Origin: Limnochordales bacterium
Lineage (GTDB): Bacteria > Bacillota > Limnochordia > Limnochordales > ZCTH02-B6
Assembly (NCBI GenBank): GCA_035304545.1
Contig: DATGPV010000054.1
Coordinates: 74,473 to 138,472 of the forward strand
Length of the DNA stretch: 64,000 bases
Direction: 5' to 3'
Below are positions 4,015 through 6,441 of the stretch, piece after piece; within the stretch, counting starts at the first letter, position 1; each line of letters starts with the position of its first letter. Under the pieces are notes generated by a model that was not told where the DNA came from, ran no database searches, and worked only from the letters and a program-made list of their open reading frames with translations. The translations under genes were made by a program, and so were the position numbers.

Positions 4015-5060
4015 GGCGCTTCCCCGTACCCCAGAACGTCGACGCCAGGTTCACCCGCCGCCACCCGGCCGATGACCCAGCTCCGCTGCCCCTGCGCGGC
4101 CAAGTGCCGCACCGCGGCGTCCGCCTGGTCCGCGGGCACGATAACGGCCATCCCAATGCCCAGGTTGAAGGTGCGCAGCATCTCGCCGGGGCTCACCCGG
4201 CCCGCGGCCTGGATGAGGGGAAAGATGGCCGGCACCGGCCAGCGGCCCCACTCCAGCACGGCCCGGGTGCCGGGGGCCATGGCCCGGGGCAAGTTTTCCG
4301 GCAGACCGCCGCCCGAGATGTTGGCGATGCCCCGCACCTCCACCGCCTGCAGCAGACTGAGCACCGGTTTCACATAGATGGCCGTCGGCTCCAGCAATTC
4401 CTCGGCCAGGGTCCGGCCCAGCTCGGGCACTACGCCTTCCAGGGGCAGGCGCGCCCGCTCCAAGAGGGCCCGCCGGGCCAGCGAATACCCGCTGCTGTGC
4501 AGGCCCGTAGAGGCCAGGCCGATGATCGCGTCCCCCGGCGCCACCCGTCGGCCGTCGACGAGCCGGTTCTTGGGGACCATGCCCACCGCGAAGCCCGCGA
4601 TGTCGTATTCGCCCGGTCCATAAAAACCGGGCATTTCCGCGGTCTCGCCGCCCAGCAGGGCGCAGCCCGCTAGGCGGCAACCGGCGGCCACGCCCCGGAC
4701 GATGGCTTCCACTTGGTCCGGGTCCAGCCGGCCCACGGCCAAATAATCCAGGAAAAACAGGGGCCGGGCCCCGTGGCAAAGGATGTCGTTGACGCAATAG
4801 GCCACGCAGTCGATGCCGATGGTGTCGTGGCGCCCGGTCATGAAGGCCACCCGCAGCTTGGTGCCCACCCCGTCGCAGCCGGCCACCAGCACCGGCGCCT
4901 CGTCGCCCTCCCCCAAGGCATACGCGCCGCCGAAACCGCCTACGTGCAGCAGCACCTCAGGACCCAGCGTCGGCTGCACCAGGGCCTTGATGCGGGCCAC
5001 GGCCCGGTAGCCCGCTTCGATGTCCACACCGGCTTCCTTGTACGTCAATCCCTCATCCAC
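4011..5060 (-). CDS. purM: Phosphoribosylformylglycinamidine cyclo-ligase (AIR synthetase) with two atypical active-site substitutions
   Basis: TYKEAGVDI, DGVGTKL, NDILCHGARPLFFLDY, GGETAEMPG, TFNLGIG; reads HSSG instead of HSNG and ANISGGG instead of AHITGGG. Confidence 0.95.
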   Translation of the reverse strand: MDEGLTYKEAGVDIEAGYRAVARIKALVQPTLGPEVLLHVGGFGGAYALGEGDEAPVLVAGCDGVGTKLRVAFMTGRHDTIGIDCVAYCVNDILCHGARPLFFLDYLAVGRLDPDQVEAIVRGVAAGCRLAGCALLGGETAEMPGFYGPGEYDIAGFAVGMVPKNRLVDGRRVAPGDAIIGLASTGLHSSGYSLARRALLERARLPLEGVVPELGRTLAEELLEPTAIYVKPVLSLLQAVEVRGIANISGGGLPENLPRAMAPGTRAVLEWGRWPVPAIFPLIQAAGRVSPGEMLRTFNLGIGMAVIVPADQADAAVRHLAAQGQRSWVIGRVAAGEPGVDVLGYGEAP

Positions 5061-6441
5061 GGACTTTCTCCTCCCGCCTCTGGGTGGGGTGCACGTCCCC
5101 CGGGGGCACGGGGTACCTCCCCGTCATGCAGCCCAAGCACAGCTGGTCCGGGCGAACGCCGATGGCCGCGCACAGCCCCTCCACGCTCAGGTAGTACAGG
5201 GAGTCGGCGCCGATGTAGCGGCGGATGTCTTCGATGGTGCGTTGCGCGGCGATGAGCTCGCCCCGGGACGAAATGTCGATGCCGTAGGGGCACGGATGCA
5301 CAAAGGGCGGCGATGCCACGTACATGTGCACTTCCTTGGCGCCCGCCTCCCGCACCAGGGAGACCGTCCTGCGGGACGTGGTGCCCCGCACGATGGAGTC
5401 GTCCAGGACGACCACCCGCTTTCCGGCCAGCACCCGCCGGTTGGGATTCAGCTTGATCTTCACCGCCAGGTGGCGCACGGCCGCGTCGGGATGGATGAAG
5501 CTGCGGCCCACGTACCGGTTCTTGACCAGGCCGATCTCAAAGGGAAGCCCGGCGGCTTCGGCAAAGCCCATGGCCGCGGACGTGCCCGAATCGGGCGCGG
5601 CGATGACCACATCGGCTTCCACCGGCCGCTCCTGAAACAGTCGCCGCCCCACTTCCTTGCGCACCAGGTGCACGTTGCGGTCGAACAGCTCCGAGTCGGG
5701 GCGGGCGTAGTAGATGTACTCAAAGGCGCAGGGCGCGCGGGACGGCAAGGCCTGAGGCCGGCGCCGGACGACGCCGGCCTTGTCCACCAGCAGCAGCTCG
5801 CCGGGCAAAAGTTCCTGCCCGTCCTCGATGCCCAGGGCGGTCAAGGCGCAAGTTTCCGACGCCACCACCACCACGCCGTCGGAGTGGCCGAAACAGAGGG
5901 GCCGGATGCCGTATGGATCCCGGAAAGCCACCAGGGCCGCGGGGGTGAGCAGTATGACAGCCCAGCCCCCCTGCAGCGAGGCCATGGTCTGCCCCACGGC
6001 TTCCTCCAAGGGCACCCCCGCGCAGCGGGCCAGCCGGCTGAGGATAACCTCCGCGTCGCTGGTGGTTTGGAACACCGAACCGCCCTGCTGCAGGGCTTGC
6101 CGCAAGGCGTGGCCGTTGATCAGCGCGCCGTCGTACGCCACAGCCACCGGCCCCCGGCTGGTGTAGGCCATCAGGGGCTGGATGTTGGCGGGGTCCTGGG
6201 CGTCGGCCCGGGACGAGAGCACGTGGCCTATGCCCGCCGGGCCCGGTAGCCGGCCCAGCACCGCCCGATCAAACACTTCGGGCACCAGTCCGTGGCCCTT
6301 CACTACCTGGATGCGGCCGCCGTCGGCCACCGCGAGGCCGCAGCTTTTCTCGCCCCGGTGCTGCAGCGCGTACAGCCCAAGGTAGATCCGGTCCGCCGCC
6401 CGGGACCCCTCAGGGCCCCAGACGCCGATGACTCCCGCCAT
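5053..6441 (-). CDS. purF: Amidophosphoribosyltransferase with a degenerate glutaminase domain (no Cys1)
   Basis: Starts MAGVIGVWG after a [63 protein letters not shown]. Confidence 0.95.

Follow-up and report, generated by a model that had tools for sequence, protein, structure and literature searches.

A single-copy PurF with a dismantled glutamine site in a Limnochordales bacterium and the probable use of ammonia in its purine synthesis

The stretch of DNA analysed here, called the window throughout, comprises 64,000 nucleotides of contig DATGPV010000054.1 (positions 74,473 to 138,472 of the forward strand) in the Limnochordales bacterium assembly GCA_035304545.1, and contains a purine biosynthesis operon, in the order purB-purC-purL-purF-purM-purN-purH-purD, whose purF gene is the subject of this report. 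All eight pur genes are open, with 0 frameshifts or stops, and all match their family models. The source genome (G000) is a metagenome-assembled genome (MAG) of 2.58 Mb in 69 contigs, 98% complete with 0 contamination, and has a single PurF: when the whole genome was scanned with TIGR01134, only this locus scored over the cut-off, and the other two proteins matching PurF models are GlmS-like and AsnB-like, both starting M-C-G. The features of purF, which encodes an N-terminal nucleophile (Ntn) domain and a phosphoribosyltransferase (PRTase) domain that binds phosphoribosyl pyrophosphate (PRPP), are as follows.

5053..6441, minus strand: purF coding sequence, 462 amino acids plus stop; a PurF orthologue with a predicted inactivated Ntn-glutaminase site
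6449..6460, minus strand: Shine-Dalgarno-like run GAGGAGGAGGGG, read from the DNA, inside the end of purL
6436..6441, minus strand: start ATG and codon 2 GCG (Ala), the Cys1 nucleophile position; ATG TGC in relatives
5752..6441, minus strand: N-terminal Ntn-type domain, residues 1-230; fold kept, catalytic and glutamine-binding residues replaced, evolving at about 2x the rate in relatives
6346..6348, minus strand: codon 32, Lys replacing the conserved Glu of QHRG(Q/E)E
6214..6219, minus strand: codons 75-76, CTC TCG (Leu-Ser), replacing Arg-Tyr of GHVRY
6130..6132, minus strand: codon 104, GAC (Asp), replacing the oxyanion-hole Asn (AAC in relatives)
5056..5751, minus strand: PRTase domain, residues 231-462, conserved
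5374..5403, minus strand: PRPP-binding loop, residues 347-356
5128..5730, minus strand: span with the four [4Fe-4S] ligand cysteines C238, C384, C435 and C438

A preliminary description of the locus had placed the gene at these coordinates, which stand; the strand is minus. The Shine-Dalgarno run lies 7 nt upstream of the ATG (GAGGAGGAGGGG-CAGCCCC-ATG-GCG-GGA-GTC-ATC), and the protein begins MAGVIGVWG, without a propeptide and without a nearby in-frame Cys upstream, an N-terminus that had been described and is seen in the DNA. An upstream start or propeptide was considered and rejected, since the upstream frame overlaps purL and lacks Cys (..RRRGSP-M), and the homologous ATG or GTG serves as the start in relatives. 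The stop of purL (TGA, 6412-6410) falls inside purF, giving a purL-purF overlap of 32 nt (6410-6441). In relatives an in-frame stop stands two codons ahead of the purF start; the window has CAG there, from which a spurious upstream frame to 6969 arises.

In E. coli numbering we take the glutamine-site residues of PurF to be Cys1, Arg73, Tyr74, Asn101, Gly102 and Asp127. The window protein can be aligned over its full length with B. subtilis PurF (1AO0; HMMER, 430 bits), and this alignment sets Ala2 on Cys1, L75 and S76 on the Arg-Tyr pair, and D104 on the Asn of AHNG. The replacements first noticed in the translation, GHVLSSR (residues 72-78) for GHVRYST and AYDG (102-105) for AHNG, are thereby placed, the paired segments (window/B. 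subtilis) being GHVLSS/GHVRYA, AYDG/AHNG and TSDAE/SSDTE; Asp129 of TSDAE and G105 are retained. Orthologues from the same genus, about 71% identical, read ATG-TGC-GGC at the homologous start (MCGVIGV), with GHVRYS and AHNG. The rest of the protein is that of a PurF. It scores 434.6 bits on TIGR01134 (cut-off 350) over residues 3-444, contains the Pfam domains GATase_7/GATase_6 and Pribosyltran, and carries the APDSG (PDSG) and KNRYVGR motifs. The PRPP loop and the four cluster cysteines, reported as retained in the preliminary description, were both found: loop residues D347, D348, S349, G353 and T355 are invariant in our alignment of PurFs (A1), as are the cysteines, which sit in CAFEYIY, HPCPYG and CLGC and all align with those of the 1AO0 cluster. 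Every feature that defines the PurF/TIGR01134 family is accordingly present (full-length match, two-domain fold, PRPP/PRTase motifs, Fe-S cysteines, location in a pur operon), and those that define the glutamine-hydrolysing enzyme (EC 2.4.2.14) are absent, the N-terminal Cys nucleophile being Ala2 and the Arg-Tyr of GHVRY and oxyanion Asn of AHNG being L75, S76 and D104. As judged from its sequence, the protein is a PurF by descent and architecture that lacks the defining catalytic features of the glutamine-hydrolysing enzyme.

The extent of these changes was gauged against canonical PurFs, defined by C, R, Y and N at the four sites (48 rows among 91 aligned PurFs; those four columns are conserved by construction), in which positions conserved in at least 95% of rows number 46 in the N-domain and 60 in the C-domain. 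The window protein changes 6 of the 46 (C2A, E32K, R75L, Y76S, N104D and L136R; 40 kept) and 2 of the 60, both conservatively (T314S and A437G; 58 kept), and PurFs of the same genus change 0-1 per domain. The concentration of lesions on the glutamine site that had been described is upheld, and the accompanying count of three in the glutaminase and none in the PRTase domain gives way to six and two. The closest homologue, at 80% identity, is P0003, for which Logan assemblies are the only source; together with its variants P0275 and P0276 it occurs on 17 contigs. It reads MSGVIGVHG, GHVLSAK and AHDG, with Ser1, Leu-Ser and Asp; E32K is unique to the window lineage. In a quick maximum-likelihood (ML) tree of 91 rows (eight partial or duplicate rows excluded, and 15 added P rows partly chosen for lacking Cys), the window PurF and P0003 group together (SH-aLRT support 100%), and seven Cys-bearing rows from the genus and family are the sister group of this clade. 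Since both of its members have them, the Leu-Ser and Asp replacements and the loss of Cys predate their split, and the gene was kept afterwards.

The two halves of the gene have since evolved differently. Identity between the window PurF and P0003 is 165/230 (72%) in the N-domain and 200/217 (92%) in the C-domain, whereas canonical pairs whose C-domains are likewise 92% identical have N-domain identities of 81-91%. With the topology fixed, ML branch lengths give N-domain paths from the shared node of 0.66 and 0.54 for the two Cys-less sequences versus 0.26-0.39 for six Cys-bearing ones, and C-domain paths of 0.19 and 0.22 versus 0.13-0.21. A per-domain comparison of the ratio of nonsynonymous to synonymous rates (dN/dS), as the preliminary description had advised, points the same way: NG86 values for the window gene and four relatives are 0.25-0.38 (N-domain) and 0.11-0.21 (C-domain), and those for canonical pairs are 0.14-0.23 and 0.09-0.11, figures that are rough, with dS of 0.7-1.3 and pS of 0.44-0.65, near saturation. 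A scan of metagenome contigs with P0003 for DNA of the sister lineage returned 80 loci, and because the best were only 72-73% identical, and probably Cys-bearing relatives, a clean dN/dS for the period after Cys loss was not obtained. Constraint on the N-domain is relaxed about two-fold and far from lost, and the PRTase half evolves normally. The original suggestion of relaxed selection on the glutaminase only, and not of pseudogenisation, fits this domain-specific acceleration, the conserved PRTase half, the single copy in an intact operon and the lesions shared with the sister lineage. An AlphaFold model built on a 53-row alignment (pLDDT, the predicted local distance difference test, 87.8; pTM, the predicted template modelling score, 0.87) shows pLDDT of 76-97 across 10-residue blocks of the N-domain, with low confidence only at 310-328, presumably the flexible loop of the PRTase, and in the C-terminal tail. 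Its top Foldseek matches are 1AO0, 1GPH and 6LBP (TM 0.89-0.91; 1AO0, 0.89), and in the model the N-domain still folds confidently as PurF.

The features of the remainder of the operon are listed here.

9680..11100, minus strand: purB, start approximate (listed open reading frame to 11518); TIGR00928, 297 bits
8728..9609, minus strand: purC; TIGR00081, 217 bits
8702..8727, minus strand: purC-purL junction, the site of purS/purQ in same-genus relatives
6410..8701, minus strand: purL, of the small type without a glutaminase domain; NF002290, 902.6 bits
4011-5060, minus strand: purM, intact
3361-4014, minus strand: purN, intact
1733-3301, minus strand: purH, intact
362-1651, minus strand: purD, intact

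All of these genes except purB exceed the cut-offs of their family models. The purB score lies below the 326-bit cut-off, and since relatives score likewise (276-302 bits) this looks like a lineage trait of model fit and not damage. A purE gene is encoded elsewhere in the genome.

The corresponding operon of the same-genus genome G002 reads purB-purC-purS-purQ-purL-purF. With purC ending at 8728 and purL starting at about 8700, the window has no room for purS and purQ, and contigs bridge the junction without gaps. Scans of the entire genome gave no match to PurS (TIGR00302) and a best score of only 25 bits for PurQ (TIGR01737), and tblastn with the PurQ and PurS of G002 and G046 gave a best E of 0.02. 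The genome's GuaA, which lies outside the window (C58:35303-36904), is full length, with a synthetase half scoring 489.9 bits, and its glutamine amidotransferase (GATase) half scores 121.9 bits versus a cut-off of 172: the nucleophile motif reads PLLAIGSGMA, versus PVLGICYGMQ in G002 and G003, and the HPE motif is retained. The cysteine is kept in PyrG (828.9 bits, GICLGLQ), CarA (409 bits, GICLGHQ), TrpG/PabA (GVCLGHQ), a HisH-like protein (GICLGLQ), and in GlmS and AsnB-like proteins, both M-C-G. Among the enzymes checked, those predicted to have lost glutaminase function are thus the ones at all three glutamine-using steps in purine synthesis, and no others. Genes for glutamine synthetase GlnA and an Amt transporter (AmtB) are also present. 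The genome further contains two stand-alone class-I GATase-like open reading frames, at C58:46809-47849 and C54:152910-154046 (the latter 14 kb past the end of the window), with GICRG/GVCRG and HPE motifs, which from these motifs we take to be of the "peptidase C26 / PuuD-like" kind.

These findings are most readily reconciled with a PurF that acts, as the preliminary description had proposed, as an ammonia-dependent phosphoribosylamine synthase and forms part of a repeated change in purine synthesis from glutamine to ammonia, a reading that we hold to be likely, and under which the cell probably builds its purines from free ammonia. The PRTase half would bind PRPP and make phosphoribosylamine from free NH3. 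The Ntn domain would be unable to hydrolyse glutamine, because its nucleophile, Arg-Tyr pair and oxyanion Asn are replaced, and may persist as a folded scaffold that supports the PRTase site, the channel, the Fe-S cluster and the oligomer. By the same token, formylglycinamidine ribonucleotide (FGAM) synthase would consist of the small PurL alone, running on ammonia, and GMP synthase, without its glutaminase cysteine, would do likewise, so that, with the losses in PurF, PurL and GuaA, ammonia would take the place of glutamine at each of the three steps of purine nucleotide synthesis that use it. The absence of purS and purQ and the loss of the GuaA cysteine, both missed in the preliminary description, strengthen this reading of PurF. 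The small PurL of B. subtilis, as Hoskins et al. in 2004 are said to have found, uses NH4+ by itself. The DNA of the window is found in compost metagenomes, and compost is rich in ammonia. Replacement of Cys1 by Ala or Ser in E. coli PurF abolishes activity with glutamine and leaves that with NH3 (PMC3261824, citing Mei and Zalkin 1989). Similarly, GMP synthetases and ATPPase subunits take external ammonia in vitro, with a Km for NH4+ of about 26 to 174 mM (PMC10526850).

The same pattern was followed through 91 genomes of the class Limnochordia, each with completeness of at least 80%. A PurF match was found in 79 of them. Position 1 is Ala only in G000 and Ser in G040, G022, G046, G042 and G027; it is Gly in the very divergent proteins (35% identity) of G024 and G029 and in the second G044 copy. 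The Ser1 codons are TCC, AGC, AGT and AGC, each one step from TGC by codon comparison, and on the tree the non-Cys PurFs require at least 5 changes (starred branches only) and up to 7. Beyond the class, a set of 150 PurF cluster representatives (50% identity) contains 122 with the canonical residues at all four sites and about 8-10 without Cys at position 1. A transition in TGC would yield Arg or Tyr, and a small first residue suits removal of Met and packing of a buried N-terminus; the non-Cys residue is always small (Ala, Ser or Gly), which is consistent with an N-domain kept as a scaffold.

PurL, nearly always of the small size, matched in 76 of the 91 genomes, and PurS and PurQ occurred together in 25; beyond those 25, PurS gave no match, and PurQ matched only in a fused large PurL (G060, G061 and G092) and weakly in G024 and G029. 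Small PurL without detectable PurS/PurQ was observed in G003, G022, G036, G040-G043 and families f6, f8, f9 and f12, and such a PurL is possibly a natural NH3-dependent FGAM synthase. Among single-purF genomes with small PurL (n=65; partial rows and the two-copy genomes G044 and G045 dropped), all four PurF sites (C, R, Y and N) are kept in 18 of the 20 in which purS/purQ is present, and there is a tendency for absence of purS/purQ to be linked to changes in the PurF site. The C-terminal half of GuaA was found in 87/91 genomes and its GATase half over the cut-off in 28/91; GATase halves below the cut-off are either degenerate, with Gly, Asp, Asn or His in place of the Cys, or truncated, with open frames of 411-470 amino acids. 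The GuaA motif was read in 20 of the 91 genomes, namely all 8 with a single non-Cys PurF and 12 others. The cysteine is absent in 8/8 of the former (Gly, Asp, Asn, or the motif degenerate or the domain truncated), the six genomes that keep it (G002, G003, G008, G032, G047 and G043) all have PurF Cys1, and six have PurF Cys1 without the GuaA cysteine; in this 20-genome tally, therefore, loss of the PurF Cys is nested within loss of the GuaA glutaminase. The genome G003 (L094, C8), of the window's genus, has purB-purC-purL-purF without purS/purQ and keeps both the PurF and the GuaA cysteine. Because it groups with a purQ-bearing genome on the PurF tree, its loss of purS-purQ looks independent, and the pair seems to have been deleted two or more times in this genus.

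On balance, we lean towards a switch to ammonia-run purine synthesis in Limnochordia that was repeated and modular, the class-I glutaminases (PurQ with its adaptor PurS, and the GATase of GuaA) being lost first and the Ntn nucleophile of PurF last, the latter in perhaps four or five lineages or more. Of the cases found, that of the window organism is the most complete, with Ala1, a dismantled glutamine site, no PurS/PurQ and no GuaA cysteine.

Further variants of the PurF site were seen in the survey. All 12 genomes of family f9 (L014, L015, L037-L042, L044-L046 and L049) keep Cys1 and read GHVRL and Q/H/L-NG (CRLN), genus g15 (L025, L028, L061, L065 and L077) keeps Cys1 with GHVMY (Arg to Met), and all f9 and g15 genomes were noted to be without purS and purQ. 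G043 combines Cys1 with N101D. Recurrence of Asn-to-Asp at the oxyanion site was considered as an adaptation and rejected: all cases are AAC to GAC, and the Ser alternatives are AAC/AAT to AGC/AGT. Such A-to-G transitions would be favoured in a GC-rich genome under relaxed selection. In family f7, the PurF-like proteins L081 (G024) and L082 (G029) show 35% identity, Gly1 and VFDG; L081 has 15 of 60 conserved C-domain positions changed, and the f7 locus holds a 948-amino-acid PurL frame with an adjoining weak PurQ-like gene. This PurF-like protein may belong to a different paralogue family.

Several observations weigh against the use of ammonia by the window PurF and against the wider switch. 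Known PurF, PurL and GuaA enzymes have high Km values for ammonia (mM to 100 mM; for GuaA, see above), so that a flux from NH3 needs high internal ammonia. Use of NH3 in vivo is our inference, and the contig from an RNA library that covers purF (see below) does not prove transcription. The N-domain is under clear purifying selection with Asp129 kept, which gives some room for a ligand-binding role. The G000 assembly is a MAG in 69 contigs, and the 2% that it lacks could contain purS, purQ or a second purF. In the class, 21 of the 45 genomes in which purS/purQ was not found keep all four PurF sites; independent contrasts of purS/purQ presence against an intact PurF site yielded 7 pairs and a median p of 0.25, not significant; and G046 has Ser1 in an otherwise canonical site, yet purS-purQ are present.

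The strongest alternative is that an amide donor still supplies the nitrogen, either through an unlinked glutaminase that passes NH3 to PurF (and to PurL and GuaA), for which the two peptidase-C26-like class-I GATase proteins, or some other protein, would be candidates, or through a pocket that binds another donor. The N-domain is conserved past what a pure scaffold might need, with 40/46 conserved positions kept, Asp129 among the retained residues, and an N-domain dN/dS of 0.06 in genus g17 after N101D, and the stand-alone GATase-like frames do exist in the genome. Neither of these, however, shows linkage to the pur operon; the gate Tyr is gone, as is the Arg to which the carboxylate of glutamine binds; PurS, the adaptor by which a glutaminase docks on small PurL, is missing as well; and literature searches, with most subscription journals outside their coverage, found no trans-glutaminase system for PurF. 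We consider this alternative unlikely. Somewhat less credible still is an inactive relic, in which purines are salvaged and the operon is in early decay, with PurF, PurS/PurQ and the N-terminal half of GuaA the first to go. Damage to three components of one pathway in one genome would suit such decay, as would the several genomes of the class without any PurF or PurL match. Against it, the eight pur genes of the window are free of frameshifts and stops, and only glutaminase functions are hit, the synthase halves being spared (58/60 positions in the PRTase, 489.9 bits for the C-terminal half of GuaA, 902.6 bits for PurL); moreover, the PRTase half has retained 92% identity since its divergence from the sister lineage, and the same selective pattern recurs in independent lineages.

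There remains the authenticity of codon 2, for which TGC had been named beforehand as the outcome that would overturn the case. Contigs of four runs from 4 studies (3 DNA runs, which may include the source sample, and 1 RNA-library run) were compared with window positions 4900-9800, these being not raw reads but contigs, which drop rare variants; they show GCG at codon 2 with 0 differences. The start is covered by X1 record 1 (4900-7091), X14 records 9 and 10, X7 record 25 (4900-9800) and the RNA-library contig X17 record 17 (5489-6452). No variant or indel was seen in purF, the sole differences, at 7598 and 8035, both lying in purL. All sampled words of a 1.7-kb stretch occur in 14 public runs, of which most carry the label compost (one is soil, one fertilizer and one unspecified), and any part of it in 20 runs from 11 studies; the exact PurF protein occurs on 29 contigs, the longest of 282 kb. 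As remarked earlier, codon 2 is formally a single indel pair away from TGC, since ATG-GCG-GGA can be derived from ATG-TGC-GGC by one deletion and one insertion; an actual error of this kind finds no support in the data, and the five further in-frame substitutions cannot come from an indel. An artefact of assembly, binning or sequencing at this codon, or a chimeric MAG hiding a real purF, can be dismissed as wholly implausible, the MAG origin of the genome notwithstanding, in view of the identical contigs, the 14 runs, the 29 occurrences of the protein, the Ser at the same place in the sister lineage and the absence of genome contamination.

Set beside known systems, the window protein resembles B. 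subtilis PurF (1AO0/1GPH) in its two-domain architecture, length, 45% identity and TM of 0.89-0.90, and in its PRPP loop, four cluster cysteines and operon position after purL. It differs in that the B. subtilis enzyme hydrolyses glutamine with a Cys1 exposed by removal of a propeptide, whereas the window protein has Ala directly after Met and replacements of the Arg-Tyr pair and oxyanion Asn. The beta-lactam and carbapenam synthetases are descendants of AsnB that retain a Cys-less Ntn domain as a scaffold and have changed their chemistry; in the window PurF, by contrast, the synthase reaction is presumably unchanged. Cys1 mutants of E. coli PurF likewise lose the nucleophile with the PRTase half intact and keep activity with NH3 (PMC3261824), yet they are single engineered changes in an Fe-S-free enzyme, and the window protein is natural, fixed, altered at several sites and the product of the sole purF in a free-living bacterium. 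The closest described system is PurF' of Crenarchaeota, a natural PurF homologue among purine genes that shares the lack of an N-terminal Cys (often Ala or Val), and for which Brown et al. 2011 proposed an ammonia-dependent role, as a proposal only (PMC3261824). In that account PurF' is an old, separate paralogue cluster always beside a canonical PurF (PMC3261824), whereas the window PurF is single copy, is nested among canonical Limnochordales PurFs (in a tree without archaeal PurF' sequences) and comes with the loss of PurS/PurQ and of the GuaA cysteine. The NAD synthetases are a further amidotransferase family in which some lineages use ammonia without a working glutaminase module (PMC3376133); in those NadE proteins the glutaminase domain is absent, and in the window PurF it is kept, predicted to fold, and under selection.

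The literature searches described above found no report of a sole-copy Cys-less PurF in bacteria, of small PurL without PurS/PurQ, or of purine peculiarities in Limnochordia. The PurF Cys1 is usually taken as invariant and has been used to validate purF gene calls (Brown 2011, PMC3261824), and the pathway-wide, recurrent loss of glutaminases is a more interesting result than the PurF gene alone. If the ammonia reading is true, ammonia can in nature supply the nitrogen for the committed step of purine synthesis, and "glutamine-dependent" is not a fixed property of the pathway, for which there would be natural NH3-specialised forms of PurF, PurL and GuaA. Such proteins would offer natural enzymes in which to study access of ammonia to the PRTase site without the donor end of the channel, and would show roles of the Ntn domain besides catalysis. 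Metabolic models and annotation would also be affected, since genes of this kind are named "amidophosphoribosyltransferase" and assumed to consume glutamine, and the combination of losses could serve as a genomic marker for organisms that live at high ammonia, for instance in compost and digesters.

An Rfam scan of the window revealed no purine riboswitch or other RNA at the pur operon. Its gathering-level matches lie elsewhere, and are a PyrR binding site at 22907-23034 on the minus strand (54 bits, exactly at the threshold) and a tRNA at 53036-53118 on the plus strand.

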